Shown: positions 4,184-45,042 of the stretch, in pieces
Numbering within the stretch: position 1 is the first letter of the stretch
Layout of the letters: each line of letters starts with the position of its first letter
Notes under the pieces: generated by a model
Told to the model about the DNA's origin: nothing
The model's input: the letters and a program-made list of their open reading frames with translations, nothing else
The model's database searches: none
Translations under genes and position numbers: made by a program
Origin: a virus
Taxonomy: Duplodnaviria; Caudoviricetes
Length of the DNA stretch: 64,000 nucleotides
Direction: 5' to 3' (one strand)
Virus record (IMG/VR): IMGVR_UViG_3300008262_000001

Positions 4184-6466
4184 ATGAAAAATGTATTAGC
4201 AGTTGTTTCATTTGTACTACTTTCTTTTCTGTCACTCGGACAAAGTTTGATAGATGATATAGGTAGACAAGTGTTACTTACACCGAAGCTTGATGCAAGG
4301 AAGCATCAGGTGGACGAATTTTTGGATTTTTACAATGTAGAGATTGTGAGCTATTTAGATCAGCTTGACATCTATGTTGTAAGAACAAATGATTTTGATC
4401 TTCTCACAGCACTCTGTGAGGATAGTGGTTTATTTGGTATAATCGAAAGAGATAGAATGGAAGAAATCAAATTCGATTATATTCCCAATGATACTGAATT
4501 TGCCTCTTGTTGGCATTTGAGACAAGCAAATGACAAAGACATTGATGCAGATGAAGCTTGGGATTTACTTCCAACAGACAACCAATGGGTTTCTGTTGCT
4601 ATGTTTGATGGTGGACTTGATATGACAATTCCCGAATTTGTTGGAAATGTCGACAGCCCGTTTAATGCTGTGAATGGTACTAACTCAGTTCCCTATGTTA
4701 ACTCAGAAGATAAACATGGTACTGCTTGCTCTGGTACAATAGCAGCAAGAACCAATAACGGAATTGGTGTTAGCAGTGTTGGTAACAACTTTGTTAAGGT
4801 TATGCCTGTCAACATTATGTCGCAGGTTTATGCAGGAGGAACTTTTGGAACTTCTACCGGAATTCAAGTTGCAGCAGTTAATGCAGCAATGGCAAATCCC
4901 AATTGTGTTGCTATTGCGATGTCTTATGGTGGTAGCACATACTCTGCAACTCTTGAAAATGCTTTTTTGAATGCAAGGGCAAACGGAAGAGGAGGCAAAG
5001 GAATGATGGTATTTGCTTCTTCCGGTAATGGTTATTCAGGAACTGCAGCTCAATATCCAGCTAACTACAATGGAGTTTGGGGGGTTGGTGCAACAACCTC
5101 ATCAGATACAAGAGCTAGTTTTTCGAATTATGGTCAAATCTGTGACATTTCTGGACCCGGTTCAGCAATTAGAACCACTGACAGACTTGGTGCCGAAGGA
5201 TATGATCCAACTGACTACAAGAGCGTTAGCGGGACATCTTTCAGTTGTCCAATAACAGCTGCAGCTTCAGCAGTTATCGCTTATAAAAACTGGGAGTTAA
5301 CTGATGATGAGATTTTGCAAATTCTATCTTCAACTTGTGAAAAGGTTGGTGGTTACACTTACACTAATAATCCAACTTGGCCTTACAGTACTAGAAGTAA
5401 CGAATTAGGTTATGGAAGGATTAATCTTAAAAATGCAGTTATTGCAACACCCACACCTGGTGGTCCACCTCCACCTCCACCAACAATAGTTTCTAACTAC
5501 ACTGTTAACAATGTAATAGTAACTCCAGCTAGTGTAAACTTAGGAGAGACAATTTTAGTAAACTACAACGCTATAGTTACTGAAGAAGTAAATGTATCAA
5601 CTACCTTTGCCACATTTGTTGGCGTACAATATAGATATTCAGCAAACTCTACATTGGGTGATGCAGATGACATTATAATTGGTGTCGATAGTGTGAGCTT
5701 AGGTGGAGGAAATAATTCTGTAACTAGATCTTTCTCCTATACAGTTGATGGGATGGCAGGTACACGTTACATATTCGTAACCATAAACTATGACAATGCA
5801 GCAGAAGAAACTATAACTTCGGATAACACAAGTTTCAAAGCTTTCAATGTTGCAAATCCATCTATGACGGGAACAGACCTTCGTGTGGAACTTGTTCAAC
5901 CAGTAGCAAATCCCTGGACGACTTCTCTCCAGATAGTAAACACACAATGGAGAGCGGTTAACACAGGAACTACAACAATCAACCAGATCAATTACACAAG
6001 AAGATGGATTGATTGCACAGCAGCTTATGGATGTGTAACAAATTCAACTTGGACAGGCACTTTGCTTCCTGGACAATCAACTTTGCTTCCTGCAAACAAC
6101 ACTTATATAAGTGTGAATCTTTGTCACCCAACAAGATGTGCAGTTCCAGTAGGAACTTCGAACACTTTCAGATTGGATGTGATAAGTGTGAACGGAACAA
6201 TGGGGGACACTGATCCAACTAACAATAGGGTTGATCTTGTTTTCAATCGCCTTGCAACAAGTGGAGAAGATATCATCGGTAATTATCCTCTTCTTGACGA
6301 TCCTGAAGGTGTTTATATTGAAGACGATTATCCAATTGCTGTAGAGATCTACACAATTACTGGAGCTTTATTGGACATTAACAGATATAGTGAATTACCA
6401 AGTGGTATTTACATTATCAAAGCTCAATATATGGATAGAACAGAAACTTTCAAATGGGCTAAATAA
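4184..6466 (+). CDS. secreted S8 subtilisin-like serine protease with CARDB/Ig-like domains and degenerate T9SS type A C-terminal domain
   Basis: Signal peptide; triad MFDGG (D), HGTACSG (H), GTSFSCP (S); oxyanion ASSGNG; poly-Pro linker; C-terminus VEIYTITGALL...LPSGIYIIK. Confidence 0.9.
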   Translation: MKNVLAVVSFVLLSFLSLGQSLIDDIGRQVLLTPKLDARKHQVDEFLDFYNVEIVSYLDQLDIYVVRTNDFDLLTALCEDSGLFGIIERDRMEEIKFDYIPNDTEFASCWHLRQANDKDIDADEAWDLLPTDNQWVSVAMFDGGLDMTIPEFVGNVDSPFNAVNGTNSVPYVNSEDKHGTACSGTIAARTNNGIGVSSVGNNFVKVMPVNIMSQVYAGGTFGTSTGIQVAAVNAAMANPNCVAIAMSYGGSTYSATLENAFLNARANGRGGKGMMVFASSGNGYSGTAAQYPANYNGVWGVGATTSSDTRASFSNYGQICDISGPGSAIRTTDRLGAEGYDPTDYKSVSGTSFSCPITAAASAVIAYKNWELTDDEILQILSSTCEKVGGYTYTNNPTWPYSTRSNELGYGRINLKNAVIATPTPGGPPPPPPTIVSNYTVNNVIVTPASVNLGETILVNYNAIVTEEVNVSTTFATFVGVQYRYSANSTLGDADDIIIGVDSVSLGGGNNSVTRSFSYTVDGMAGTRYIFVTINYDNAAEETITSDNTSFKAFNVANPSMTGTDLRVELVQPVANPWTTSLQIVNTQWRAVNTGTTTINQINYTRRWIDCTAAYGCVTNSTWTGTLLPGQSTLLPANNTYISVNLCHPTRCAVPVGTSNTFRLDVISVNGTMGDTDPTNNRVDLVFNRLATSGEDIIGNYPLLDDPEGVYIEDDYPIAVEIYTITGALLDINRYSELPSGIYIIKAQYMDRTETFKWAK

Positions 6467-8402: not shown

Positions 8403-9587
8403 TTATCCAAAATAGAATCTTTTTCTAACTTGTAAGAGTAGATCTTTCACGAAATCGGGCGCAACACTTTCTGGTAAAGACGATTCTTTAAATAATCTAT
8501 CAATTTCAATAATGTCTTTTTCTGCAAAGCTTATCAAACTCTCAAGATCAATTTCTCCTCTTCTTATCGCTAATAAATCATGTGCATTTTTTCTTCTAAC
8601 TAAAACTCCTTTTCCCTCTGCAATCTCTTTAGCCATTTCAAGAAGTCTGCGACAGTGCATCATGTTTTTACCATCAATTTTTTGGCCATGAGATTCAACA
8701 TCTACCCATCTTTGCAAATTCCTTTTTTCAAGCCACACTTGATATTCATTGAAATCCTTACAGTGCATAATGTAACCGTCCTTGTTGTAAATGATGTTAC
8801 AAATAGGGGTTTGTCCATTTGGTATCGAGGAAAGACGTAATTGATTTGATTCTGCAACACTTGCCCCATGTCCAGTTTTTACAAGACCTTTGTAGCTGAA
8901 TCCCAATGGTAGACCAGATTCTTTTCTGGTTTCTAAATATATTTCACGAGTTTTAGTCGGAACTTGTTCTGAAAAACATAAATGAGCGTCGGTGTCATAG
9001 TAAAGAGCATATATGTCTCTTGCATTTGGTACGTTTACTGCACCAATGAATTTCTCGTCATATCTTCCATTGTTCCATTGCTTCCATGGTATAGACTTTT
9101 CATCTTCAATTACATAACAAAAATCTAAAACGTCCTTGCGTGAGACTTTGTCTTTGTCCCAGTTTTGTTTCTTGTCCTGTCCCTTAGCCTTCTTGATTTG
9201 CTGAATTGCATAACCAGCAAAAGAATTAGAACATTTCTTAGTCACAAATTTGTCCTTATAACGGAGTATTTCATCCATTGCTGGATGTTTGTATAGAATA
9301 CAGTCTTCGGGCGTGTTTAGAAGCTCTAAAATAGTTGGATTGTTAGTAGATGCAAGTTCTAAAAATCTCTTAATCTCATAAAAGACAGTGTCATTCTTGT
9401 CATCGTTAATTTGGTCTTTATACCCATACCCAAGTATATCATCAAGGCTTTGAATATAAATTCCAGCATAGTCAACATCAGAAGTTGGAAGAGCTGTTCC
9501 GTAAACTTGCGACCCACGTTTCACAACCAGTAATAGCTCAGCTCCTGAAATTTTAGAATTGACTAAGTTGGTAAACTCTTTCATCAT
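8403..9587 (-). CDS. DNA polymerase beta-superfamily nucleotidyltransferase (RlaP/Nuc-transf-like)
   Basis: RGSQVYGTALPTSDVDYAGIY (GS...DxD) motif, NPTILELL, C-terminal KNMMHCRRLL helical domain. Confidence 0.85.
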   Translation of the reverse strand: MMKEFTNLVNSKISGAELLLVVKRGSQVYGTALPTSDVDYAGIYIQSLDDILGYGYKDQINDDKNDTVFYEIKRFLELASTNNPTILELLNTPEDCILYKHPAMDEILRYKDKFVTKKCSNSFAGYAIQQIKKAKGQDKKQNWDKDKVSRKDVLDFCYVIEDEKSIPWKQWNNGRYDEKFIGAVNVPNARDIYALYYDTDAHLCFSEQVPTKTREIYLETRKESGLPLGFSYKGLVKTGHGASVAESNQLRLSSIPNGQTPICNIIYNKDGYIMHCKDFNEYQVWLEKRNLQRWVDVESHGQKIDGKNMMHCRRLLEMAKEIAEGKGVLVRRKNAHDLLAIRRGEIDLESLISFAEKDIIEIDRLFKESSLPESVAPDFVKDLLLQVRKRFYFG

Positions 9588-13023: not shown

Positions 13024-16000
13024 ATGAAAAAAATAATAGACTGTTTTACATTTAATAATGAATTCGAACTTCTGGAGCTTAGACTTGCTGAAATTTATGA
13101 TGTTGTGGATCAATTTATATTGGTAGAGGCAAACACAACACACCCAGGAAAAAATAAAATATTTTTCTTTGAAGAGAATAAGTGGAGATACGAAAAATGG
13201 ATTGATAAAATTATCCATCTTAAAGTAAATTTTCCTTTGCACTTAGATACTTGGGGAAGAGAAAAATATCAAAGGAATTCAATTATGCCTACTTTATACT
13301 CGTTAGGATTATCAAATGATGATATAGTTGTAATTAGTGATCTCGACGAAATCCCAGATTCGAGCACACTAAACTACATAAAAACTAGTTATCCAATGAA
13401 AGGATTATTTAAGCTAGAGATGGATCATTATTGGGCTTCTATTTACAACAAATTAGTATATCCAGAAAAATGGTATCATGCAAAAATAGTAGACTGGGAG
13501 ACTTTAAAAGGAAGAACCCCAGATGAGTGCAGGCTAGATTTTAATTGTCAATGGTGGGAAAGAGGAGGATGGCATTTATCTTATTTTGGAGGTCCTGAAA
13601 TTATAATTAACAAAATCAATAGTACTGCTCACCAGGAATTAAACCAGGAAAGATTTAAGATAAAGGATGAGGTAATAAGAAAGGTGAAAGAGGGATTAGA
13701 TCTTTTTGACGAATGGAGAACATTCCAAAAAATAGATCCTTTAGAAAATACATATCTTCCTAAAAACTGGGGAATTCTTTCAAAAAACGAGGAAAAATAT
13801 GGGAATAAAATAAAAAACAAAAATAACCTAGTATTAGGAGCCGCCATAAATCTTTCATTAGAAGATATAAGAATTTTTGTAGATTCATTTAGAAGTAAAA
13901 ATCTTAATGACGATGTATATCTGATTATTGAAGAATCAGCATCGCAGGATAAATTGGATTACTTAAAAAAGAATTCAGTAGAAATACTCTCATTTGAATC
14001 AGGGCAAATACTTGAAACGCAACCTAATAATTACAGGTTCATCAAATTCTTAGATTTTTTAAAAGAGAAAAATACATATAAAAATGTTCTTCTATCGGAT
14101 GTTTCTGATGTATATTTTCAATCCGACCCATTTGATGGATTAGATGGTGAATTCATATTTTTTGCGGAGGAGGATGAATCAGAATCAATAGGTTCGAACA
14201 AATTCAATTCTAGATGGATAATACAATGCTTCGGTGAAGAATACTTAGAAAAAATTAAAAATGAGAAAATAGTTTGCTGTGGAACTATTGTAGGATCATA
14301 TGGGAATATTCTTAAGTATTGTAAAAAAAGCTCCTCAGAAATGATCAGAATGTATAATGAGAGGAAAGACTTCTTTTATGACATGATGGATCAAGGAATA
14401 CACAACTATATCTGCTATAATTCTATAGAGGATTTTGTAAATCCGAGCATCAAGAAAAACGGGGATTTTTTCGCAACAATAGGTATTACCTGTGGAGTAG
14501 CACCTGAATCAATAGAGGTGAATGAATTAAAGATCCACGTCAATAAAAAAATACCATCGGTAATCCACCAATATAATAGATCCCGTGAAATTACAGATTC
14601 TATTAAGACACTATTACAGTTGGAAGGAATCGGAGATAAAGTTCTTGAAACTAAAATAGAGGGGTTTTCTATTCTAACATTAAGCAATGATGCTATCGGA
14701 AGAGGAATAAATAAGGGTGAGTCCTGGGAGCCTCATATAGTTTCTTTTCTAAGAAATTACCTAGATAAAGAATCCGTTTTTGTCGACATAGGAAGTAACT
14801 ACGGATGGCATTCATTGATAGCATCTAGCTTATGTAAAACAGTCCACAGTTTTGAGCCTCAATCTTTAATTTATTCTCTCCAGAAAGAAAGTATCAGGAA
14901 AAATAAATTTGAAAACATAATTCAATATAAAAAAGGATTAGGTAGCATAATAACACAATCCAATCTTTCTCCTATAAATTATCACGAAAATGGACTAAAT
15001 ATAGGTGACCTGGGTGTGGGATTAAACGGGGAAAATATAGAAATTATAACTCTTGATTCTATAAACATAGAGAAAGTAGATTTAATTAAGATTGATGTTC
15101 AGGGGTACGAAAATTTTGTCATAGAGGGAGCTACGAAAACTATAGAAAAAAATCGGCCTATCATAATAATAGAGATAGAAGAATTCCAGCTTTCTAAATT
15201 TGGTTTTTCTTCAGCTAACATATTTGAAAAAATAAGAGGCCTGAATTACGAAATCTATCTGATGGAACATTCTTATCCGTCAGATCATATCTGTGTTCCT
15301 TTAGAAAAAGCGGATGAATTTGAGAAAAAAAATAATATAGATCCACTCACTGAAAACAACAACATAAGTAACAGTTATGCTAATGGAGTAAGAAAGAAAT
15401 TTCTGAAATCAAAAAAAAGTTTATCTGGAATACTAGACTTTAATAGAATAAACGGATTTGATAGCGAGGGCGGAACAGACAAAGGAACACTTCATAGCTA
15501 CATAGAAACTTACGAAAGGATCCTATCTAAATACATTGGAAAAAAATCATCAATACTGGAGGTTGGAGTTCAATACGGGGGATCATCCCTTTTATGGCAC
15601 GAGTATTTGGAGGATTCAAATCTAGTAATGGCAGACATTAAAGATCAGATAGGAAAAAATATATTGGACAGATTAAATCAGGAAAGATATAAATTCCACA
15701 TTTTTGATGCTTACACTAAGGAATCACTAGAAAAAATCAAAGAAGAAAATCCCGAAGGATTTGATATTTTGATAGATGATGGACCTCATACATTAGAGAG
15801 TCAAAAGTTTTTTATCAAAAATTACATATCACTAGCAAAAGAAAATAGTGTTATGATTATCGAGGATATTCAAGATATAAATCATACTGCAATATTAAAA
15901 GAATGCTTACCTGAGGAATACAGGGAATCTATAGAGATTATAGATCTTAGAAATCAAAAAAATAGGTACGATGATATAATGTTTATAGTACATATTGGAG

Positions 16001-16653
16001 ATAAAAAATATAAATCCTCCAATTTGGATTTTACATTTGGATGGATTTCTCACAATAAAGAGGCTTTTGAAAAATACCTAGGTCCTTCTCTAGAAAAAAT
16101 AGATGGAAAATATCAATCTATATCCACGGACGACTCAAAAAATCCAGCATATAATTACAATAAAATAATAAGTGAATGTAAAACAAAATGGCTTATTTTG
16201 TGCCACGAGGATGTAGCATTTTCTAATGATCTTTTAGATCAAATAAAAGAAACCGTAAAATTAAACCCAGATTCTAAATTTTTCGGGATGGCAGGATCTA
16301 ATGGCAATCAAATAATTTCTTCAGATTCAAAAGAGTCGAGAGATATTTTAACAGCGGATTCATGTTTTATAGTTATTGATACAGAAAACTTAGATCTCAA
16401 TTTCGACGAAAATACATTTGACGATTTTCATTTATACGTTGAAGATTTTTGTGTACAATTAGGAGAAAATGGAAAGACTATATTGTGTGATTACACGGAA
16501 CCCTATAATTACCCAGATGAGAAAGAAAATAAGAAAAAATGGATTCTACATGGAGGATCTACATATTTTCAATTGGGTTCTCAGTGGGGAAGATATAAAG
16601 AATACAAGGAGAAGTTAAATAAAAAATGGGGAAGAGAAATTCCAACTACATAA
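13024..16653 (+). CDS. multidomain glycan-modification protein: GT17-like + GT-like + FkbM methyltransferase + class I SAM methyltransferase + GT-A domain
   Basis: DCFTFNNEFELLELRL / ISDLDEIP / GGWHLSYFG (GT17); SDVSDVYFQSDPF; VDIGSNYG...IKIDVQGYE (FkbM); TDKGTLHSY...LEVGV...IDDGPH; LCHEDV (GT-A). Confidence 0.85.
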   Translation: MKKIIDCFTFNNEFELLELRLAEIYDVVDQFILVEANTTHPGKNKIFFFEENKWRYEKWIDKIIHLKVNFPLHLDTWGREKYQRNSIMPTLYSLGLSNDDIVVISDLDEIPDSSTLNYIKTSYPMKGLFKLEMDHYWASIYNKLVYPEKWYHAKIVDWETLKGRTPDECRLDFNCQWWERGGWHLSYFGGPEIIINKINSTAHQELNQERFKIKDEVIRKVKEGLDLFDEWRTFQKIDPLENTYLPKNWGILSKNEEKYGNKIKNKNNLVLGAAINLSLEDIRIFVDSFRSKNLNDDVYLIIEESASQDKLDYLKKNSVEILSFESGQILETQPNNYRFIKFLDFLKEKNTYKNVLLSDVSDVYFQSDPFDGLDGEFIFFAEEDESESIGSNKFNSRWIIQCFGEEYLEKIKNEKIVCCGTIVGSYGNILKYCKKSSSEMIRMYNERKDFFYDMMDQGIHNYICYNSIEDFVNPSIKKNGDFFATIGITCGVAPESIEVNELKIHVNKKIPSVIHQYNRSREITDSIKTLLQLEGIGDKVLETKIEGFSILTLSNDAIGRGINKGESWEPHIVSFLRNYLDKESVFVDIGSNYGWHSLIASSLCKTVHSFEPQSLIYSLQKESIRKNKFENIIQYKKGLGSIITQSNLSPINYHENGLNIGDLGVGLNGENIEIITLDSINIEKVDLIKIDVQGYENFVIEGATKTIEKNRPIIIIEIEEFQLSKFGFSSANIFEKIRGLNYEIYLMEHSYPSDHICVPLEKADEFEKKNNIDPLTENNNISNSYANGVRKKFLKSKKSLSGILDFNRINGFDSEGGTDKGTLHSYIETYERILSKYIGKKSSILEVGVQYGGSSLLWHEYLEDSNLVMADIKDQIGKNILDRLNQERYKFHIFDAYTKESLEKIKEENPEGFDILIDDGPHTLESQKFFIKNYISLAKENSVMIIEDIQDINHTAILKECLPEEYRESIEIIDLRNQKNRYDDIMFIVHIGDKKYKSSNLDFTFGWISHNKEAFEKYLGPSLEKIDGKYQSISTDDSKNPAYNYNKIISECKTKWLILCHEDVAFSNDLLDQIKETVKLNPDSKFFGMAGSNGNQIISSDSKESRDILTADSCFIVIDTENLDLNFDENTFDDFHLYVEDFCVQLGENGKTILCDYTEPYNYPDEKENKKKWILHGGSTYFQLGSQWGRYKEYKEKLNKKWGREIPTT

Positions 16654-18613: not shown

Positions 18614-18787
18614 ATGAGCAACGAAGAATATTTAGAAGAAATTTTACACGAAGCACACAGATTAGGTGTGGTTTCAGAGATAATCTCTAGGGTTCCAGAG
18701 AACGTTCAAGACAGGGAAAGAACTGATGCTTTCTTAAAGGCTTTCCGTGAAGTTGTCAAAGAAAAAAATTTAGAGCATTCTCTCTAA
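18614..18787 (+). CDS. small hypothetical protein (57 aa, absent from ORF track)
   Basis: MSNEEYLEEILHEAHRLG...KNLEHSL*; GATAAATA at 18602-18609. Confidence 0.6.
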   Translation: MSNEEYLEEILHEAHRLGVVSEIISRVPENVQDRERTDAFLKAFREVVKEKNLEHSL

Positions 18788-19803
18788 AGAATAATTTCAC
18801 TATCAAGATCTATAAGGTTGTGATCTCCGTCTGGTATCTCAACATAGTCATACTTCTTATAAGTCTTAGCATAACTTTTAGCCTTGTCTTTTAGAATTTG
18901 AACTATATCTGAAGGCATTTTAGTCCCAAAGCAATCTTCAAAAATATATTTGTAAATTCTAATCGATGCGTTGCCTACCAGTCCTGGAGTTTCGTTATGT
19001 TCTATACACCAAGCCTTGTTTTCATTGTCAATAGCAACATCTAAACCAACAAAGTTGAGATTAGGATAGAAGTCAAAAATAGATTGAGCTATAGGCTTTA
19101 TTTGACTCCAATATGGAAATAAATTGATATCTATAGGTTCCCAAATAAACTTGGATTTGATCTCTTTTTCCTTTGCCTCATTTACTCTCAAAGATTTTGA
19201 TTTTTTATTATTTGGAGTTCTGCACCAAACGCCAAAAGCCTTTATTCTTTGATCATTGTTACCCTTAAATAACATTATTCTATACTCGTCTTGAATAGGA
19301 ATACATTCTTGGTAAACATCAAACTTCTTATTTCCTAATTGCTCAATAGAATCTATTTTTTCTACACCCTTGGATTGATAGGAATCATCTTTTTTGGCAA
19401 TGATAGGAAATCTTAATGTTTTTAAATCCTGCTTATTGAACACTGTCTTTGGGAACCAATCTACTTTTTTATCTAAAGCTTTTTTAGCAAGATCTTTCTT
19501 GCCTGGATCGAAGTCTGACGGATGATTATAAATTAAAGACTTCTTAGGTAAATCACCATTCTTCAAAAGATCTTTTGATCTTTTCGGATTTCTCCAGAAA
19601 AGCAATGGCAATTCTTTGTCTATTTTATTGAATTTATTTCTTTCATAGAAATCCACCCAATAGTTTTTCATATCATCACCTATCTCTTCCTCAGCATCCT
19701 GAAAGTTTAGGGAACAATAGATTTGTACCTTTTTGAAAAAGTCATTAACCATTTTTTCAATGTTAGATTTTTGGAAATTTTCAAAAAGTTTGATGTGTTT
19801 CAT
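18784..19803 (-). CDS. ATP-grasp (RimK-like) peptide ligase with CTS-like leader
   Basis: PIIAKKDDSYQSKGV, YQECIP..DEYRI, VGLDVAID...CIEHNETPGL; N-terminus MKHIKLFENF; GATATATA at 19809-19816. Confidence 0.8.
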   Translation of the reverse strand: MKHIKLFENFQKSNIEKMVNDFFKKVQIYCSLNFQDAEEEIGDDMKNYWVDFYERNKFNKIDKELPLLFWRNPKRSKDLLKNGDLPKKSLIYNHPSDFDPGKKDLAKKALDKKVDWFPKTVFNKQDLKTLRFPIIAKKDDSYQSKGVEKIDSIEQLGNKKFDVYQECIPIQDEYRIMLFKGNNDQRIKAFGVWCRTPNNKKSKSLRVNEAKEKEIKSKFIWEPIDINLFPYWSQIKPIAQSIFDFYPNLNFVGLDVAIDNENKAWCIEHNETPGLVGNASIRIYKYIFEDCFGTKMPSDIVQILKDKAKSYAKTYKKYDYVEIPDGDHNLIDLDSEIIL

Positions 19804-19822: not shown

Positions 19823-19852
19823 AAAAGGGTCAGACTTTGGATGTCTGACCCT
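19823..19852 (-). terminator. rho-independent terminator after endolysin
   Basis: AGGGTCAGAC-loop-GTCTGACCCT 10-bp stem with T-run on the minus strand. Confidence 0.75.
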
Positions 19853-19870: not shown

Positions 19871-20704
19871 TTAGGCCAAGAGGCTATAGTATTCTTTGAA
19901 ATGTTTGATACGATCAGGTAATCCAATAGTTCCTCCGTTTACTCTCTTTGTTACTGCTGTGACAGTTGCATCATCTGCACCTTTATCACATATGCTCCAA
20001 AGTCCGTTATTGTTGAAGAAAAATGCAGCAGACATCAATGGATATTTAGTTGCAACTAAATCTGGATTGGCTAAGATATCTTCATCAACCATTTTATCGA
20101 AAGCTGAGTAATTAGATTTTCCTGTTAGTTGGATATAACCTCTACCTCTGAATTTATAGCCATCACCAGAAGCTTCATCTCCATTTCCCATTCTAGAAGA
20201 ATAAACCTTGTTGGCAATTTTTTCGGGTTGTCTAGAATATGATTCGTTTAAGTTTCCAGGAAAGTATTTAGGAAAAATCTTTTTAAGGCCATCAGCTGAA
20301 TAGTTTAGATTCTCAGAGACAGCTTTGAAACCTCCTGATTCATGACCACACTGAGCTAAGAAGTGTGCAAGTCTTAAAGTGTTTGTAATTCCAAATTTTG
20401 CAGCAGTGTCTGGAATCTGTGCAATCACTGCATCCGGAATATGACCTTTTAGTTTATCCAGCTTGAAAGAGCTTGATGGAATGGTAACTGGTGATGCTGA
20501 AGGGGCATCAGGAAAAGAAGCAGTAACTCCCATCCGATCCAATGTTGCTGGGCCTGCTATTCCGTCAGCAGTGAGACCGTGTTTTTCTTGCCATTGTTTT
20601 AGCGATTGTTCTGTGCCTGGACCGAAATTTCCGTCTGCTCCAATTCCTAGAGCTTTCTGTAATCTTTCCACATCAGGACCTTTAGAGCCGAGTTTAAGAA
20701 TCAT
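19871..20704 (-). CDS. endolysin: N-terminal peptidoglycan-binding domain + GH19 catalytic domain
   Basis: LKLGSKGPDVERLQ..ADGNFGPGT..WQ..HGLTADGIAGPAT (PG_binding_1); LAHFLAQCGHESGGF, GDGYKFRGRGYIQLTG; GATATATA at 20721-20728. Confidence 0.93.
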   Translation of the reverse strand: MILKLGSKGPDVERLQKALGIGADGNFGPGTEQSLKQWQEKHGLTADGIAGPATLDRMGVTASFPDAPSASPVTIPSSSFKLDKLKGHIPDAVIAQIPDTAAKFGITNTLRLAHFLAQCGHESGGFKAVSENLNYSADGLKKIFPKYFPGNLNESYSRQPEKIANKVYSSRMGNGDEASGDGYKFRGRGYIQLTGKSNYSAFDKMVDEDILANPDLVATKYPLMSAAFFFNNNGLWSICDKGADDATVTAVTKRVNGGTIGLPDRIKHFKEYYSLLA

Positions 20705-20745
20705 GAGATATATTTTTTACTATATATCCCCAAAAAGTCCTTAAT

Positions 20746-20994
20746 TTACTTAAATGAAATCACTTCGATCTCAATAGAATCTCCTGGACAATATTGTTTA
20801 TCTACCACGAACGTGTTGTCCCAACAATCAGTTTTAACCCTCCATTGATTTTTCCTGTTGATTTCATCCATAACAGAAACTATTGGAATTTTTTCAGAAG
20901 AAACAACTTCACATTTGACTTTCTTGACTTCCTTTTGTTTATCGAAACAGCCGATAATGAAAACTGGAATGATTAAATAAATTATTTTTTTCAT
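20746..20994 (-). CDS. small lipoprotein (o-spanin-like candidate)
   Basis: MKKIIYLIIPVFIIG-C lipobox-like signal; immediately upstream of endolysin. Confidence 0.6.
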   Translation of the reverse strand: MKKIIYLIIPVFIIGCFDKQKEVKKVKCEVVSSEKIPIVSVMDEINRKNQWRVKTDCWDNTFVVDKQYCPGDSIEIEVISFK

Positions 20995-21000
20995 AGTCTT

Positions 21001-21186
21001 TTAGTATCGTTTAAAATCTCTTAAATAAACATGGACCCTTTCTTCAGGAATAGAAAAACAGAAACTTTTTTGTGTGAGTTTATTTCCTCCAGGAAATTTA
21101 TCATTCATAACTTCAAAAAGCTCCTTTCTGCTTCCTTCCAATTCAATACCTTCAATGTCAGGGTAATTTAGTGTTTTTCTTCCCAT
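21001..21186 (-). CDS. hypothetical protein
   Basis: 61 aa in co-directional run. Confidence 0.55.
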   Translation of the reverse strand: MGRKTLNYPDIEGIELEGSRKELFEVMNDKFPGGNKLTQKSFCFSIPEERVHVYLRDFKRY

Positions 21187-21270
21187 GAATATTTTAGTCG
21201 TGAAGTCGGAAATAATTCGTCCAATTGTTATTCACCTGCGAATCTATGGGAATTTTCTAAATAAAAAAAA

Positions 21271-21960
21271 TTATTCTCCAGATTTTCCTGATCCTTGCGA
21301 AGCATATTTAACACCCATTATAGTACCGATAATACTAAAGGCATTTGTTAATAGAATACCAAACATATTGCTCCAGGTAGAACTAATTATTTGTGTGTCC
21401 TTATCTGTGAACATTGCAGTTAAATAAAGCCCGGTTGTGACCAAACCTACTCCTAGAATTATATAAAGAGCAACCCTTACTATGGTGCTAATTAATTCGA
21501 ATTGTGTTCTTTTCTGTAGAACATCTAAATCATTTTCAGCATTTTGTTTAGCCTTTTCTGCTTCTTCCCTTGCTCTCTCAGATTTAAGCATTTCTTCCCT
21601 GAGTTCTTGACTCATCCTTTCGTTGTCATCTTTCCAGAGTAGCAGTTCTTTATTTTGACTTTCGATTTGTTCTTTAGAAGTTTCTGTTTGAGTAAGGGCT
21701 TCCTGAAGCTCCTCCATTATTCTTTTGTTCTCATCATTAAGATCCAATAACTCCTTATTTTTTGTCTGGATCTGTTTGGTGATTTCGAGCCTTTTCTTCC
21801 TAGTGGCAATATCTTTCTCTGAACACTTTTTTAAATACTCGCTAAATTCCTCGTCCCCACCAGAATCTATTACTTTAATGATGTTACCTTCTAAAAAAAG
21901 ATTTTTAGATTCAGAGATGGAAATTAATTCCTTCTTTATTTCACTGGTTAGTTTAATCAC
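21271..21960 (-). CDS. coiled-coil protein with two C-terminal TM helices
   Basis: Long E/K/Q heptad region then two hydrophobic helices; GTG start overlaps response regulator TGA. Confidence 0.8.
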   Translation of the reverse strand: MIKLTSEIKKELISISESKNLFLEGNIIKVIDSGGDEEFSEYLKKCSEKDIATRKKRLEITKQIQTKNKELLDLNDENKRIMEELQEALTQTETSKEQIESQNKELLLWKDDNERMSQELREEMLKSERAREEAEKAKQNAENDLDVLQKRTQFELISTIVRVALYIILGVGLVTTGLYLTAMFTDKDTQIISSTWSNMFGILLTNAFSIIGTIMGVKYASQGSGKSGE

Positions 21961-22388
21961 TTATAAACTTTGAAAGGTGCAGTTCTTTTTTTGTATCCGT
22001 CGTAATCCTTTTTAAATTCTTCAAGTCTTGGTTCAATATCATCAGATTTTATAATCCAAAATTGAGCTCCCGCTTGTATTGCTTTAGCCTGTTCATCGGG
22101 TTCATTAGATGATGAAATTATACCTATCACAACGTGATTTCCGTATTCAAAGTTGATTTTTCTAATAAGCTCGATACCATCAAAGGAAGAACCTATGATA
22201 TTCAAGTCAACAAAAACACATTCTGGTTTTTCTGCTGGGTTTTTCTGCCACTGCTGGAAAAGTTTAGCAGCTTCATCTGAGCTGTTCAAGGTCTTTAAAG
22301 AAAGAGTTATATCTAACAATGAACAGGAATCCTCAAAAACTAAGTGGAATAAGTCCTCATCGTCTACTAACAAAATTGAATCAATCAT
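21957..22388 (-). CDS. single-domain response regulator (REC)
   Basis: ILLVDDED acidic pocket, phospho-acceptor in VFVDLN, SSS, WIIK conserved Lys; no output domain. Confidence 0.93.
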   Translation of the reverse strand: MIDSILLVDDEDLFHLVFEDSCSLLDITLSLKTLNSSDEAAKLFQQWQKNPAEKPECVFVDLNIIGSSFDGIELIRKINFEYGNHVVIGIISSSNEPDEQAKAIQAGAQFWIIKSDDIEPRLEEFKKDYDGYKKRTAPFKVYK

Positions 22389-22392
22389 AATT

Positions 22393-23649
22393 TTATTTCA
22401 GTTTAATTATTATTTTGGTTCCGATGTCATTTTTATCACACAACATCTCAAATCCGTGCTCCTTAAAAATTACATTAGAAATACTCAAACCCAGTCCCAT
22501 TTCCCCTTCCTCTTGTTCTTCCCTTTTGCGTTTGATGATTTTTTCAAACTGTTTTCTTGTTAGTCCTCTCCCGTTGTCTTGAACTACGAGATTTTCTTCT
22601 TCCATGTAAATTCTAACATATTTATCCTCGTTGTCATTATATTTAAGTCCATTCTTTATAAGATTATCGAGTGCATTACAAAATAATACTGCATTAACCT
22701 CTAAGTCAGGAAGCGACTCAAGTTTAACCTGGTTTGAATAAGAGGTGTTGCTCATATAGTTTTGCAATATCTCGGAAATACTAATCAACTTTTTATCTAA
22801 AACAACATTTTGCTTTACCAAATTAGTAAACTCGTACACACTCTTGTAAACCCTTTGAGTGTGAGCCAATCCATCCTTAATCATTTTTAAAGAGGTCTCT
22901 ATCTTAAGATTTTGTACTTCTTCTGGAGATATCCTCTTTTCTAAAGAAGTCAGTCCCCTAGGAATGTATGTGTTAATTCCCGAGTGCATATCGTGCCTGA
23001 TAATTCTGGCTGCGTGCTCTAAATAAGTGTTCTTTTTGTTTATATCGTCTAACTGGCTTTCTATCTCTCCGTCTTTGACCCTGATTGTTTTTCTCTGTAA
23101 AAGAACCATAACTCCAAGTATTGAAAGAACTAATCCAATAATTGCAGTATAAAGATATTTCTTATATGTTTCTTTTTCAGTCTTTAAAATTTCCTTGTCA
23201 ACTATAAGATTTCCATTTTCGTCTTTTAAATCTCCAGATTCAAGAGTTAAGGTAACAATGTTCTTTTCCTTTTTAAGAGTTTTAATTGTTCCCTCTTTAG
23301 TTTCGACTAATTTTTGATTAACAACTTTTGCTTGGAGTAACGAATCTCTCTCTTGAATAAGCTTATTTATTTTATTATCAATCTCTTGAAGAATATTCTT
23401 TAAATCCTGCTTGGGAAGTTCTTCGTAAGTTTTTGGTAACGTCTCTAAGAACTGTAAATCTTTTTTAACGCTTTCAACTACAAATAGTTCATCTTCCAAG
23501 ATTGTTGCGGTTATGACTTTTTCCTCCTTAGGTTCAAACACCTTTTCTGGTTCAACCCATACAGGGCGTATTCTTCTGTCCACTACTGTATCTTGCGATA
23601 AAGAAAATAAAGGTAAGAATAGAATTAAAAGGATAAGGGCATTTTTCAT
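22393..23649 (-). CDS. sensor histidine kinase (signal peptide, extracytoplasmic coiled coil, TM, DHp, HATPase)
   Basis: H-box RHDMHSGINTY; N-box NALDNLIKNGLKY; G1 VQDNGRG; G2 GLGL; start MKNALILL at 23649 overlaps upstream TGA. Confidence 0.92.
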   Translation of the reverse strand: MKNALILLILFLPLFSLSQDTVVDRRIRPVWVEPEKVFEPKEEKVITATILEDELFVVESVKKDLQFLETLPKTYEELPKQDLKNILQEIDNKINKLIQERDSLLQAKVVNQKLVETKEGTIKTLKKEKNIVTLTLESGDLKDENGNLIVDKEILKTEKETYKKYLYTAIIGLVLSILGVMVLLQRKTIRVKDGEIESQLDDINKKNTYLEHAARIIRHDMHSGINTYIPRGLTSLEKRISPEEVQNLKIETSLKMIKDGLAHTQRVYKSVYEFTNLVKQNVVLDKKLISISEILQNYMSNTSYSNQVKLESLPDLEVNAVLFCNALDNLIKNGLKYNDNEDKYVRIYMEEENLVVQDNGRGLTRKQFEKIIKRKREEQEEGEMGLGLSISNVIFKEHGFEMLCDKNDIGTKIIIKLK

Positions 23650-24233
23650 TTTTTCCATTGTGATTTGTGTTTCCAAACTTTTCTTTGTCTGATTCTTTCT
23701 TGACCAACAAGTTCCAAATCACCTAGTCCCCCAAATCCCCTTTCTCTTGATCCTGGACCTTGTCCGTTTTCAGAATATTCTAAGAATCTTCTATATTCAC
23801 TGTCTTTCATCCTTGGTAAAAAAATTCCATAGTCGTCAGTTGTAAGAAAATATCTTGAAAGGTCTAAAACATAAAGCTCAGTATCTAAAGGACTTGAGGT
23901 GAAAATAATCGAAGGTGAAAGTGACCATTTCCATATGCTATCTAAAAGAGCGTTATTCCATGCTAAAGAGGAATCTAATGAATTTTTGAGACTATCAATT
24001 TCTTTATTTTGTAATGAAATAAAACGATTAAGACTATCCGTTGTGTTTTTAAAAGCTTTAAATTTATTTAGCATCAACAGATTTTGTTCATCGATAGTTC
24101 TGTTAATCTCTTCACTTTGTGCGATTGTCAGAATAACTACAGAGTCCCCACGAAAAATAGTTTGAATGGGATATTGGTTTTGTGAATAAACCAAAGAAGA
24201 AATTAGGAGGAAAACTAATAATAGCGTTTTCAT
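23646..24233 (-). CDS. secreted coiled-coil protein in signalling operon
   Basis: Signal peptide MKTLLLVFLLISSLVYSQ, coiled coil; coupled to both flanking kinases. Confidence 0.75.
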   Translation of the reverse strand: MKTLLLVFLLISSLVYSQNQYPIQTIFRGDSVVILTIAQSEEINRTIDEQNLLMLNKFKAFKNTTDSLNRFISLQNKEIDSLKNSLDSSLAWNNALLDSIWKWSLSPSIIFTSSPLDTELYVLDLSRYFLTTDDYGIFLPRMKDSEYRRFLEYSENGQGPGSRERGFGGLGDLELVGQERIRQRKVWKHKSQWKK

Positions 24234-26356
24234 TATAGCATCTTTATTTTCATCTTGGTCCCTATTTGGTTTTTCTCACAAGTTATAGAAAATCCATGCT
24301 CGTGAAGAATTGCTACACATATGTTTAAACCTAATCCGGTTCCAGATTCCTTTTGCCCCTCTTTCCTAGTATAGGGTTTAGATAAATGTTCAAAGTCTTC
24401 CTGTGTTATACCTCTTCCATTATCCTGTATATAAAGAGTATCTTCTTCAAAATAAATCTTGACAAATTTTGTTTCCGAGTCATTGTACTTAAGTCCATTC
24501 CTTATTAGGTTGTCTACAGCAGTACAAAATAGTGGTTCATTCACGCTGATTGTTGGAAGATCTGAAATGATAACTTGACTATGATAAGCAGTTGCAGAAA
24601 GATAGTCCTGTAGGATTATTTTTAAATTACAATCTGTTCTATTTAGAACTACATCCTTCTTTACTAAATTTGTAAATTCATAAACACCCTTGTAAACCTT
24701 CTGGGCATGTCTAAGACCTTCTTTGATCATTTTGATTGGAGCTTCAATTTTAAGCGAATCTATATCTTCCTGTTTGAGCCTTCTTTCTAAAGATCCTAGT
24801 CCTCTAGGAATATACGTATTAATCCCAGAGTGCATATCGTGTCTTAAAATTTTAGCAGCATGTTCCAAATAAGTGTTCTTTTTTTCTATTTCATTTTTTT
24901 GTTTAACAGATTCAGTAACATTAGTAGCAATTTTCATTATTCTATATGGTTTCCCATCAGTAGTTAAAATTGGATTATAGGTGGATTGAAGAAAAACCTG
25001 TTCCCCATTTTTTCTGATCCTAACTACATCGTTTGAAAAATAAATTCCCATGCATAGATTTTTCCACATGTTGGAATATTCCCTACTATTTTTCTCCTCT
25101 TCTGAAACAAACAAACTATGATTCTTTCCTTTTATTTCATCAAAAGAATCGTAACCCATAGTTTCCAAAAAAAGATTATTAGCAAACATTATATTCCCGT
25201 CTAAATCAAATTCTATAACAGCATTGGATTGATTGATAGCATTCATCCTATTTCTAATCTCAGTTTCTTTTCTTATAACTTCAGTTACATCTTGTCGAAT
25301 GGAATGGAATCCCTCTAGTTTACCCCCAGAATCAAAAATTGCCTTGATATAAGTATCAACATAATATAAATGTCCATTCTTCGATCTGTTAACTACAATG
25401 TCATTCCATATTTGTCCATTCAAAACTTTCTCATACATTTTCCCCCAGTATCCATCAGGTTGTAGACCGGAGTTTACAATAGAGTGATCTTGACCACAAG
25501 CTTCTTCTAGACTCCAACCAGAAACTTCAGAAAATTTTTCGTTGACATAAGTTATTTTTCCGTTTTTATCAGCTATTGAAACCAGAGATGATTTGTCGAT
25601 AAAATTTTCAGTTTCTTTGATTCTCCTAAGCAAATCATTGGTTTCGTGCATCGAGAATCCAAACGAATATAGCGAAGAAAGGATCTGTGCAAAATTAACT
25701 TCTATTTTTCTCCATTTCCTAGAGGTGAGATTCTCTATACAAATCACACCAATATTTGATCCCTTGTACCAAATAGGAACATCCAGCATCGATTTTATCC
25801 CTAAAGGTTTTAGATATGGATCAGTAAAACATCTTGTGGAGGGATGGTTTTCAGCATCATTTGCAACTATTATTGGTTCATTTCTCAAAGCTTCAAAATA
25901 CTCTGAAAAATCTTTTTCGAATAACTCTATTCCGTCTTGGAATGAATCTTCTAATTTTGAATACAATTGCTGACAAACAATCCCAGATCTATCTTTGTTA
26001 TACAACCAAATAGAAGCTCTATCTGCATCAATCGTTTCCGTTATTTCTTTAGTTACAGACCTTGCTGCTTGATCGATATCACCAAAATAGTAAATTTCAT
26101 TATATGCCTGTTTAATCAGGGAAGAATTAATTTTCTTAGAATAATCATTCAGAAATATTGTGTCTTTCGTTTTGATTTTGAGATCCCTAATGAGCATAAA
26201 AAAGAAGGGAGCGAAAGAAAGGAAACAAATATATTCGGTTATCCTAGTTAACCTAGAACTTTGTACGGTCTCGAAAAGAACTAATGTTTTTACCGAAAAG
26301 AATATTGTCATTAAAACAATACAAACCAGTAAAGATATTTTAGAGGATTTAAGCAT
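24233..26356 (-). CDS. sensor histidine kinase: 2 TM + GAF + 2 PAS + DHp + HATPase
   Basis: ADRASIWLY...SMLDVPI..GVICIE (GAF); ITYVNEKF and AVIEFDLDGNIMFANNLF (PAS); RHDMHSGINTY; AVDNLIRNGLKY; DNGRG; GTGLGL. Confidence 0.95.
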   Translation of the reverse strand: MLKSSKISLLVCIVLMTIFFSVKTLVLFETVQSSRLTRITEYICFLSFAPFFFMLIRDLKIKTKDTIFLNDYSKKINSSLIKQAYNEIYYFGDIDQAARSVTKEITETIDADRASIWLYNKDRSGIVCQQLYSKLEDSFQDGIELFEKDFSEYFEALRNEPIIVANDAENHPSTRCFTDPYLKPLGIKSMLDVPIWYKGSNIGVICIENLTSRKWRKIEVNFAQILSSLYSFGFSMHETNDLLRRIKETENFIDKSSLVSIADKNGKITYVNEKFSEVSGWSLEEACGQDHSIVNSGLQPDGYWGKMYEKVLNGQIWNDIVVNRSKNGHLYYVDTYIKAIFDSGGKLEGFHSIRQDVTEVIRKETEIRNRMNAINQSNAVIEFDLDGNIMFANNLFLETMGYDSFDEIKGKNHSLFVSEEEKNSREYSNMWKNLCMGIYFSNDVVRIRKNGEQVFLQSTYNPILTTDGKPYRIMKIATNVTESVKQKNEIEKKNTYLEHAAKILRHDMHSGINTYIPRGLGSLERRLKQEDIDSLKIEAPIKMIKEGLRHAQKVYKGVYEFTNLVKKDVVLNRTDCNLKIILQDYLSATAYHSQVIISDLPTISVNEPLFCTAVDNLIRNGLKYNDSETKFVKIYFEEDTLYIQDNGRGITQEDFEHLSKPYTRKEGQKESGTGLGLNICVAILHEHGFSITCEKNQIGTKMKIKML

Positions 26357-26369
26357 TTAGTTTACTTGC

Positions 26370-26377
26370 TATATATC
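26370..26377 (-). promoter_or_regulatory. putative late promoter GATATATA heading the kinase operon
   Basis: 13 nt upstream of ATG 26356. Confidence 0.55.
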
Positions 26378-26397: not shown

Positions 26398-26826
26398 CTA
26401 TGATTTTCTTAATTCCCTAGATAATTCTTTTTCCTTAATAGAAGCTCTTTTGTCATAGTTTTTCTTACCCCTAGAAAGAGCAATTTTTATTTTGATCTTA
26501 CCTCTTTCATTGGTAAATATCAAGAAAGGAACGATTGTAATTCCTGTACTTAATCCTCTTTGCAATTTTGCAATCTCACTTTTTTTAAGGAGTAATTTTT
26601 TAACCCGTAAAGAATCATGAGAAAAATCACCTAAAGGAGAAACATTTAAGCCTTTAAGAAAAATTTCATTTTTGTCAATATAGCAAAAAGCATCTACCAT
26701 AGACACCTTACCTGATATTATAGACTTTACCTCTGAGCCTAACAATTGAATTCCTGCTGTATACTCCTCAAGAAAAAAATAATCGAAAGATGCTTTCCTG
26801 TTTTTAATGTAAATACTATTCTTCAT
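26398..26826 (-). CDS. smpB: SsrA-binding protein
   Basis: NRKASFDYFFLEEYTAGIQLLGSEVKS, RVKKLLLKKSEI, GKKNYDKRASIKEKE. Confidence 0.93.
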   Translation of the reverse strand: MKNSIYIKNRKASFDYFFLEEYTAGIQLLGSEVKSIISGKVSMVDAFCYIDKNEIFLKGLNVSPLGDFSHDSLRVKKLLLKKSEIAKLQRGLSTGITIVPFLIFTNERGKIKIKIALSRGKKNYDKRASIKEKELSRELRKS

Positions 26827-27057: not shown

Positions 27058-27393
27058 TTATATATCTGAAAATCCATCCCTATAGTTGATAAGATAATTC
27101 ATCGATTTAATCCAGGCATAAAGGCACACAACAGCGTTTAATTTTTGTAGTATTGGATCTTTCAAACCACAAAGTGTAAGCAAAAGGAAAATCAATCCAG
27201 ATATTCCCACTATGGTTAAACCGTGAGTCCATACCCAAGGCTGCAAAGTGTTTGTAATTAGCTTTATCACCACAGTAAAAAAGAGGACAAGATAAATGAA
27301 ACTGATTATAATATTTTCATCAAGTCCCAATATGATACCAACATCCTTTGCTGTTGCTATAGCTAAAAATATCGTGTATGCTAATTTTGACAT
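27058..27393 (-). CDS. hypothetical membrane protein (about 4 TM)
   Basis: Hydrophobic throughout. Confidence 0.7.
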   Translation of the reverse strand: MSKLAYTIFLAIATAKDVGIILGLDENIIISFIYLVLFFTVVIKLITNTLQPWVWTHGLTIVGISGLIFLLLTLCGLKDPILQKLNAVVCLYAWIKSMNYLINYRDGFSDI

Positions 27394-34357: not shown

Positions 34358-34870
34358 TTAAATAGAACTGAGAAAAATTCTCAATTTATGTAAGCATTCC
34401 TTATCATATAAATTGAAAATAGGTATTCCTAAATTTTTGGCTATCCTCATGGCTTGTCCAGTGCCGCCTTTTATTAATCCCCCTTGTGTCCAGCAAACTA
34501 TAAAATCTACTGGGGTAGAGAGATCTTGACCTAATACTTGAAAGCTATTCCTTGTCATTAAATCCTTAGCAGATCCTGATAGTCCTGTCCAATTCGGGTG
34601 GTGTTTTTTTGCCAACTCTCTAGCTTCTAAAACTATTTTTGGTTCAAAGATATCTAAGAAAAGATCTGAAATATTTTGATTGAATCCTTTCCAGGGTAGA
34701 TAAATTTCTTTCTCCCCTTTAAATAATGATTCAAACATTAGATCAGCCCCAGGGGCACCTCCAGATCTTAGTGTAAAATTATTTTTATGGAGCATCGAGC
34801 AAACCTCCTCAATCATTGGCTTGACTCCATTTGGGGTTTCTCTAGAACCTATTCCTGCAAAATATTTCAT
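34358..34870 (-). CDS. SLOG-superfamily (DprA/YpsA-like) nucleotide-binding protein
   Basis: FAGIGSRETP, LRSGGAPGAD, GGTGQAMRIA..GIPIFNL. Confidence 0.8.
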   Translation of the reverse strand: MKYFAGIGSRETPNGVKPMIEEVCSMLHKNNFTLRSGGAPGADLMFESLFKGEKEIYLPWKGFNQNISDLFLDIFEPKIVLEARELAKKHHPNWTGLSGSAKDLMTRNSFQVLGQDLSTPVDFIVCWTQGGLIKGGTGQAMRIAKNLGIPIFNLYDKECLHKLRIFLSSI

Positions 34871-44986: not shown

Positions 44987-45042
44987 ATTTTGGAAATGGT
45001 TTGAAAAATTATACACCGTTTCCAAAAAAGATTACAGAAGAC

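Follow-up and report, generated by a model that had tools for sequence, protein, structure and literature searches.

A two-component gene string beside phage lysis genes

We analysed a 64,000-nt stretch of DNA from a virus of the class Caudoviricetes (IMG/VR record IMGVR_UViG_3300008262_000001), hereafter the window, in which the genes of a two-component signalling operon and a set of lysis genes lie together on the minus strand. The operon consists of a histidine kinase (HK1), a secreted protein, a second histidine kinase (HK2), a stand-alone receiver (REC) and a protein with a long coiled coil followed by two transmembrane (TM) helices, which we call CC2TM (Table 1). The five genes are tightly joined: the stop of HK1 and the secreted protein gene have 1 nt in common, the secreted protein and HK2 overlap by ATGA if HK2 begins at its likely start (ATG 23649), a 4-nt gap separates HK2 from REC, and REC and CC2TM overlap by GTGA. 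An earlier reading of this DNA, made from the letters and open reading frames (ORFs) alone (the sequence-only reading), had proposed five coupled minus-strand genes followed by a small gene, a lipoprotein, a peptidoglycan-binding GH19 endolysin and a terminator. The ORF listing and the junctions bear out this arrangement in full.

Annotation was performed with Pfam, PHROGs and hydropathy analysis. Pfam models recognise GAF, two PAS and HATPase_c domains in HK1, HATPase_c in HK2 and Response_reg in REC (E 1.7e-9), and the same scan finds no domain in CC2TM, the secreted protein, the 61-aa protein or the lipoprotein. Hydropathy places two TM segments at the N-terminus of HK1, a signal/TM segment and one further TM segment in HK2, two TM segments at the C-terminus of CC2TM and none in the endolysin. 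Both kinases fall in phage 'kinase' families of PHROGs; searched against GenBank phages, HK1 gives PAS-level matches only. The secreted protein was modelled with AlphaFold2 (AF2) at a mean confidence (pLDDT) of 74, and the model has no fold match in the PDB and the protein no family match. The phage nature of the window is backed by a virion structural/tail-spike-like protein of 1221 aa, by the occurrence of relatives on IMG/VR contigs as long as 385 kb and by an identical CC2TM protein on a 313-kb contig. Other products of the window include SmpB, helicases and glycosyltransferases, and DNA of the window occurs in lake and freshwater metagenome runs from several studies, with no RNA run listed among them.

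Table 1. Features of the operon, of the lysis genes and of related elements in the window.
Feature	Position	Strand	Size	Description
GATATATA promoter-like motif	26370-26377	-		13 nt 5' of HK1 ATG
HK1	24233-26356	-	707 aa	2-TM anchor, GAF 93-229, PAS 259-350, PAS 379-482, atypical DHp with His506, HATPase_c (ORF/translation, Pfam, hydropathy)
Secreted protein	23646-24233	-	195 aa	signal peptide, beta-hairpin, long helix, small beta domain
HK2	22393-23676	-	427 aa	likely real start at ATG 23649; signal/TM, ~140-aa extracytoplasmic coiled-coil domain, TM 173-198, DHp with His228, HATPase_c
REC	21957-22388	-	143 aa	stand-alone receiver (Response_reg)
CC2TM	21271-21960	-	229 aa	coiled-coil/2-TM protein
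CC2TM, putative N-terminal input domain	21853-21960	-	residues 1-36	motif LEGN-I-K
CC2TM, coiled-coil stalk	21505-21852	-	residues 37-152	length and sequence variable; continuous helix into TM1
CC2TM, membrane hairpin	21271-21504	-		TM1 153-185, short outer loop, TM2 196-219, short C-terminal tail, stop
61-aa protein	21001-21186	-	61 aa	soluble, conserved
Lipoprotein	20746-20994	-	82 aa	lipobox Cys16
Second GATATATA motif	20721-20728	-		16 nt 5' of endolysin ATG
Endolysin	19871-20704	-	277 aa	PG_binding_1 and GH19
Intrinsic terminator	19826-19852	-		10-bp stem and T-run; closes the gene string
2-TM protein	50054-50404	+	116 aa	GATATATA upstream; holin-like candidate by architecture only

Two kinases may feed one receiver

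The sequence-only reading had judged the catalytic boxes intact, and comparison with relatives agrees with it, since the kinase and receiver residues are invariant there. More specifically, the H-box RHDMHSG (His506 in HK1, His228 in HK2) and the NGLKYN, DNGRG and GLGL boxes are conserved in 115 kinase cores, so that HK1 and HK2 each carry the DHp histidine and the N, G1 and G2 boxes of a two-component kinase. The receiver residues D9, D10, D61, S92 and K114 are invariant in 58 REC sequences. The DHp region of neither kinase reaches a Pfam HisKA model, which marks an atypical subfamily. HK1 and HK2 are identical around the phospho-accepting histidine and have the same DHp recognition helix; both therefore plausibly feed the single REC. 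The REC gene is always translationally coupled to that of CC2TM. A complex prediction for CC2TM and REC with custom alignments (score 0.20; mark 0.32) speaks neither for nor against docking of the two proteins.

A kinase-REC-CC2TM core is common in metagenomic phages

At least 592 loci of IMG/VR encode an HK2-like kinase and at least 222 encode CC2TM, many of the module loci lying on contigs of 100-385 kb. The window proteins were run by tblastn on 157 fetched loci, and 105 dereplicated loci were used for the neighbourhood counts given below. The order kinase-REC-CC2TM with start/stop overlaps is kept in 148 of the 157 fetched loci and in 101-102 of the 105 dereplicated ones. The sensor part of the kinase is variable, with an N-terminal TM pair, a GAF domain present or absent, and one or two PAS domains. 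The secreted protein and HK2 form an optional insert outside this conserved core and are found together in 26/105 dereplicated loci. Of the synteny of two kinases, REC, CC2TM and endolysin that the sequence-only reading had proposed as a check, the kinase-REC-CC2TM core and its linkage to the endolysin thus stand, and the second kinase turns out to be merely optional. In the closest relatives (78% CC2TM identity), every gene of the string, HK1 and endolysin included, is kept; the 61-aa gene is among them, and so is that of the lipoprotein, whose lipobox cysteine is retained.

The same reading had held complete two-component systems to be rare in lytic phages. The present system is indeed rare among sequenced isolates, as 50,697 GenBank phage records yield no match to REC or CC2TM, but in metagenomes it is very common.

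CC2TM is a membrane hairpin on a long helical stalk

Relatives of CC2TM fall into 6382 protein clusters at 90% identity and 218 representatives at 50%, and a search of protein representatives found no distant relatives past these 218 clusters. The Atlas clusters of the protein are labelled viral. Eight matches were obtained in species-representative genomes, all of them on contigs of metagenome-assembled genomes (MAGs) and each from a different lineage, as expected for mis-binned phage DNA. CC2TM is apparently a compact, virus-only family. PHROGs and PADLOC likewise give no match to CC2TM, to the three other unassigned products of the gene string (the secreted and 61-aa proteins and the lipoprotein) or to the small TM proteins of the cassettes, for which Pfam is negative too. 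Foldseek of the CC2TM model against viral structures returned its own orthologue only. The Phage_holin_9 model comes near CC2TM below threshold (E 0.014-0.044 in 8/58 members, at a cut-off of 27 bits). Matches to JetC and V_ATPase_I were dismissed as coiled-coil noise.

In the AF2 model of CC2TM (58 sequences, pLDDT 86), a small N-terminal domain is followed by a single unbroken helix that spans residues 37 to 185, TM1 included, and then by a tight turn and TM2. The best conserved stretches are the LEGN-I-K motif of the N-terminal domain and, above all, TM2, where W196, N198, G201, T205, N206, S209, G212, T213 and G216 are invariant. Judged from its sequence, TM2 has a small-xxx-small face with GxxxG, of the type used in tight helix packing, and the distribution of charges suggests an N-in/C-in topology for the hairpin. 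Two TM helices and recurrent linkage to an endolysin are holin-type features; the cytoplasmic extension of ~150 aa is atypical of holins. Other small TM proteins are also present in cassettes with CC2TM-type proteins.

The module keeps the company of lysis genes

The endolysin of the window is identified by PG_binding_1 (E 3e-13), Glyco_hydro_19 (E 1.2e-8) and phrog_181 (E 5e-69), and endolysins of Flavobacterium and Olleya phages match it at the DNA level. It carries no signal or TM segment and so needs a holin for export.

For the dereplicated loci, every ORF up to 9 kb away from REC was assigned to a cluster, and we asked which neighbours recur. An endolysin is the sole recurrent neighbour outside the operon, found in 55/105 loci and in 35 of the 57 with at least 5 kb on both sides; any other non-operon cluster reaches 24/105 loci at most. 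Among these 35, the endolysin lies downstream on the same strand in 15, upstream and divergent in 13, upstream on the same strand in 6 and downstream on the opposite strand in one. On the tree of REC and CC2TM, at least 20 switches in the side or orientation of the endolysin are counted, so the proximity has outlived many rearrangements of an otherwise fluid region. The tie between the output and the lysis genes that had been suggested from this DNA alone therefore reaches far beyond the genome of the window.

Small membrane proteins add to this picture. Either an endolysin or a cluster of small proteins with 1-4 TM segments is found within ~5 kb in 50 of 61 well-flanked loci. The gene directly 3' of CC2TM most often encodes a highly conserved 2-TM protein (20 loci), an endolysin (13 loci) or other small proteins with 2-4 TM segments. 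In the window, the counterpart of the conserved 2-TM protein is encoded at 50054, 28 kb from CC2TM; its homologues, 86-89% identical, directly follow CC2TM in 20-24 related loci (e.g., L126:1068-1589). The first ~105 residues of this protein are almost invariant (motif VVDYWF) and are followed by a variable acidic Pro/Glu tail. Homology between CC2TM and this family was considered and rejected (hhalign probability 0.13%).

The genes between CC2TM and the endolysin are conserved as well. The 61-aa protein is 64% identical in a relative with matching synteny. The lipobox Cys16 of the lipoprotein is kept in a 46%-identical relative; Cys28 and Cys57 are conserved too. From its architecture the lipoprotein is a possible spanin-type component; no spanin partner for it is recognisable in the window. 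A further gene, at 27058-27393 on the minus strand and two genes upstream of the operon, encodes a protein of 111 aa with ~3 TM segments that is 48% identical in locus L172, a holin-type candidate with no family match.

Natural fusions separate input, stalk and hairpin

An exhaustive search of protein representatives gave longer proteins that hold parts of CC2TM, and these fall into two kinds. In the first, a sensor is joined to the membrane end of CC2TM. P0134 joins a GAF domain, 51% identical to that of HK1, to the equivalent of CC2TM residues 60-222, and P0177 and P0172 join PAS-PAS or PAS to the end of the stalk and the hairpin. The contigs of these sensor-hairpin fusions have no kinase and no receiver. 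They do have lysis-type genes. In locus L166 the fusion gene is followed by genes for a 78-aa 2-TM protein, a 93-aa coiled-coil protein with an N-terminal TM segment, a 125-aa lipoprotein, a 77-aa ORF, a GH19 endolysin and a TM-anchored glucosaminidase. The fusion gene of L170 sits between the gene for a 99-aa coiled-coil protein with an N-terminal TM segment and those for a lipoprotein of 150 aa, a TM protein of 89 aa and a PG_binding_1 and GH19 endolysin. By their layout the coiled-coil proteins of the two loci are i-spanin-like, and both spanin architectures stand beside the fusion gene. Three more PAS-hairpin fusions lie beside endolysin-like genes (L161, L162 and L164).

In the second kind, the N-terminal domain of CC2TM and the start of its stalk are joined to a HisKA-HATPase kinase (P0229, P0244, P0215, P0254 and P0256); the N-terminal domain of these fusions is 39% identical to that of CC2TM (E 2e-24). 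In L167, L168 and two short contigs, the kinase fusion directly follows a 143-aa receiver with the same start/stop overlap that joins REC to CC2TM, and the receiver of L167 is 65% identical to REC of the window. The pairing of REC and N-terminal domain is thus preserved although the output has been exchanged. The N-terminal domain may be a general receiver-coupled input domain, unnamed in Pfam.

Taken together, the fusions show CC2TM to be made of three parts: a domain for input, a helix that transmits, and an output in the membrane. Given that sensors are wired to the hairpin where kinase and receiver are missing, the hairpin is the part to which signals are led, and it is at home in lysis cassettes. 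The fusions thereby back the view, first taken from the window, that the membrane protein is the output of the system.

Two further observations concern the N-terminal domain. At L174:1183-2169 and on a 4-kb contig of the European Nucleotide Archive (P0254), it heads HisKA kinases in bacterial-looking surroundings, close to MASE11 and HisKA kinases, a cupin and glutamine synthetase. In P0191 (348 aa), the N-terminal domain, stalk and TM1 run into a permease-like polytopic region, perhaps by chimeric assembly or as a further fusion type.

A promoter-like motif marks the operon and the endolysin

The motif GATATATA is found in 18 copies in the window, with 3.3 expected, a number that no shuffle reached. 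It lies 4-19 nt 5' of the start in 14 of ~105 ORFs, and the genes that it precedes include HK1, the endolysin, the 1221-aa structural protein and the 2-TM protein at 50054. The motif reported earlier 13 nt ahead of the operon, and the endolysin's own copy, are thus confirmed, and their enrichment is real. A scan for sigma-70-type promoters in the window gave no more matches than shuffled sequence. From the operon start at 26377 to the end of the endolysin, the terminator of Table 1 is the sole terminator-like site on the minus strand.

The literal GATATATA stands upstream of the operon in just 2/86 relatives. Instead, an [AG]TAT[AT]TAT element, often GATATTTAT or GTATTTAT, is found 5-20 nt 5' of the first kinase gene; it often directly follows a GC-rich hairpin with a T-run, and it also precedes the endolysin. 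Judging by the letters, GATATATA and GATATTTAT/GTATTTAT look like lineage-specific variants of one promoter element. Within 40 nt upstream, [AG]TAT[AT]TAT is present for 41% of first kinases, 36% of endolysins and 14% of all ORFs, and for 0-2% of REC, CC2TM and secreted protein genes. Its presence at the first kinase and the endolysin and near-absence inside the operon argue for one transcription unit, as had been claimed, with a promoter class in common with the endolysin. From GATATATA, which also precedes the structural gene and the endolysin, we infer that the operon would be expressed late.

Other genes of the window

Directly upstream of the operon lies a gene for SmpB (26398-26826, minus strand; Pfam E 1.4e-44; phrog_6791); L172 has the same synteny without SmpB, which indicates recent gain or loss. 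Directly after the terminator, an ATP-grasp-like gene (18784-19803, minus strand; sub-threshold ATPgrasp_ST) has GATATATA 5 nt before its ATG and is kept beside the endolysin in close relatives. Elsewhere, the plus strand encodes a 760-aa S8 subtilase (4184-6466) and a 1209-aa protein with GT17, FkbM methyltransferase, Methyltransf_24 and GT2-like parts (13024-16653), the latter belonging to a glycan-modifying gene set that continues in relatives. The minus strand encodes an RlaP-type nucleotidyltransferase of an RNA repair family (8403-9587) and a DprA-like protein (34358-34870; phrog_768, E 6e-56).

One 567-aa protein (43322-45025, minus strand) contains HYR_4C repeats and a weakly matching C-terminal sorting domain of the type IX secretion system. 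The sorting domain hints at a host among the Bacteroidota, as does the Flavobacterium- and Olleya-like endolysin DNA. The MAG matches, scattered over eight lineages, point to no single host.

A phosphorelay that may act on lysis

Considering these results together, we lean towards the view that the module is a phage two-component relay whose output runs through a membrane protein of the lysis apparatus. In the scheme that we propose, phosphotransfer, REC docking, action at the membrane, the sign of the effect, the cues and the late timing are all predictions. HK1, membrane-anchored and with cytoplasmic GAF and PAS domains, and, where present, HK2, with its extracytoplasmic domain and secreted partner, would autophosphorylate on the DHp histidine. 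Phosphate from either kinase would pass to Asp61 of the single stand-alone receiver, which would act through direct binding to CC2TM at its small N-terminal domain. The resulting change would run down the long, probably dimeric, helix straight into TM1 and alter the packing of the conserved, small-residue-rich TM2 in the inner membrane. The hairpin would then either form or gate a small depolarising lesion that triggers the true holin, or bind the holin as an antiholin. In either case, the time at which the GH19 endolysin reaches the wall would depend on the sensed signals. Canonical holins fire on loss of membrane potential, which makes either direction of control mechanistically plausible. 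Because the endolysin is cytoplasmic and relatives encode separate small TM proteins, CC2TM is more likely a regulator (antiholin or depolarising trigger) than the only holin. The most specific form of this proposal, a phosphorelay-gated lysis switch in huge freshwater phages by which kinases sensing cytoplasmic and envelope signals lead a hairpin, through the stand-alone receiver, to trigger or block the holin, is put forward tentatively and falls a little short of an even chance.

Several observations weigh against a role in lysis, and the first of them lend themselves to an alternative that we consider rather unlikely: the relay is real and its output controls something else, such as superinfection exclusion, ion or energy homeostasis, or envelope remodelling, the endolysin lying near because the two occupy a common region. 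No GH19 endolysin is found within 5-9 kb in 22 of the 57 well-flanked loci, and CC2TM has no significant similarity to a holin, antiholin, spanin or other family in Pfam or PHROGs. The small TM proteins nearby are likewise without a family match, being 'holin-like' or 'spanin-like' by architecture only, and in the window the 2-TM protein that follows CC2TM in relatives lies far off. The neighbouring genes are highly variable, as in a hypervariable accessory region, and the linkage could partly reflect a common late or accessory zone. Such a zone would have to contend with the fact that only lysis-type genes recur among all neighbours and that endolysin proximity is kept through the many rearrangements counted above. 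The sensor-CC2TM fusions, moreover, sit amid spanin-like genes, small TM proteins and an endolysin.

A second alternative, which strikes us as improbable, places the main target of REC elsewhere, in a second-tier kinase, a transcription factor or a host regulator, and leaves CC2TM as a scaffold, a phosphate sink or a means of localising REC. REC is indeed the most conserved component: across relatives it is 73-92% identical to the window copy, with CC2TM at 50-71% in the same relatives, its C-terminal tail is conserved, and its closest solved relatives are ordinary single-domain regulators. From this conservation, REC could have further partners. In some genomes a kinase with the CC2TM N-terminal domain follows REC, so that the relay can feed further signalling. 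Two of the kinase fusions, which like the conservation of REC count against our main reading, lie in bacterial-looking, kinase-rich two-component loci without lysis genes, one of them beside a divergent receiver. What this alternative leaves unaccounted for is that sensors are fused directly to stalk and hairpin where REC and kinase are gone, the hairpin there receiving the signal, and that TM2 is near-invariant, which is unexpected for a mere anchor.

It is scarcely credible that the operon came from a host and is carried along (as a moron) without serving the phage cycle, or that it is in decay: PAS, GAF and REC are of bacterial type and kinases with the N-terminal domain occur in bacterial-looking loci, but intact variants number in the thousands, the catalytic residues invariant, the CC2TM clusters viral by label, the MAG matches as dispersed as mis-binned phage DNA would be, and the synteny kept in close relatives.

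Relation to known systems

Our searches of the literature on phage histidine kinases, two-component systems and antiholins turned up no account of lysis being coupled to a phage kinase or receiver. The nearest functional parallel to the proposed switch is lysis inhibition of the T4 type, with the antiholin RI, RIII and the holin T, and the lysis-inhibition system of ICP1 (PMC11413866, PMC7182436). Like these, the window system would be a phage-encoded device that senses and retimes lysis post-translationally at the membrane step, with an extracytoplasmic sensing branch and with genes in or near the lysis genes. Unlike them, it would sense through histidine kinases and a phospho-receiver rather than by binding of antiholin to holin. 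Its effect on lysis is predicted, and its cues may be other than superinfection. There is no homology to RI, RIII or T, PHROGs assigning no family to CC2TM, the secreted protein, the 61-aa protein and the lipoprotein.

Receivers without an output domain act by contact, the phosphorylated CheY binding the N-terminal peptide of FliM. REC resembles CheY in lacking an output domain, in having separate kinases and in facing a presumed target with a short conserved N-terminal region. It differs in that this target is a coiled-coil/2-TM protein instead of a motor switch, and its binding is predicted.

The two TM helices of the pinholin S21 68 lie N-in/C-in, and its TM2 carries a glycine zipper. The CC2TM hairpin is similar by analogy, with two helices, a predicted N-in/C-in topology, an invariant small-xxx-small face on TM2 and a place in a lysis cassette; it differs in its ~150-aa cytoplasmic input and stalk and has no sequence homology to the pinholin. 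As the endolysin has neither a signal-anchor-release (SAR) segment nor a signal, a pinhole alone would be insufficient to release it.

In bacteria, LytSR and CidR control the holin-like CidAB and LrgAB (PMC3507848), a further case of a two-component system tied to membrane proteins of holin or antiholin type. There, a LytTR DNA-binding regulator acts on transcription, whereas the 143-aa REC has no DNA-binding domain; HK1 and HK2 carry GAF/PAS or coiled-coil sensors in place of the 5TM/His_kinase layout of LytS, and the window system is viral. The GAF-coiled-coil-2TM and PAS-PAS-coiled-coil-2TM fusions, finally, are built in the same way as one-component PAS/GAF-coiled-coil sensors, with the difference that they end in a two-helix membrane hairpin, from a family not described before, instead of an enzyme or a DNA-binding domain as output.

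Significance for phage biology

When to lyse the host is among the central life-history traits of a phage. Beyond lysis inhibition of the T-even type and that of ICP1, we know of no mechanism that lets a lytic phage adjust the time of lysis to conditions that it senses. If our proposal is true, the module would be the first signal-transduction pathway known to control the timing of phage lysis and a general, modular alternative to T4 lysis inhibition: the phage would decide the moment of its burst post-translationally, minute by minute, and the hairpin could alternatively be driven by fused GAF or PAS sensors. The module is abundant, with thousands of variants in lake and other metagenomes, in genomes of 200-385 kb, and its domains have a biochemistry that lends itself to experiment. 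On the same condition, it would give experimental access to the ways in which huge phages sense their host cell and what surrounds it, a new family of membrane effectors and, for synthetic biology, a natural switch from sensor to lysis. Even if its output is not lysis, a widely conserved, virus-specific two-component relay that ends in a membrane hairpin represents a form of phage signalling that has not been described before.

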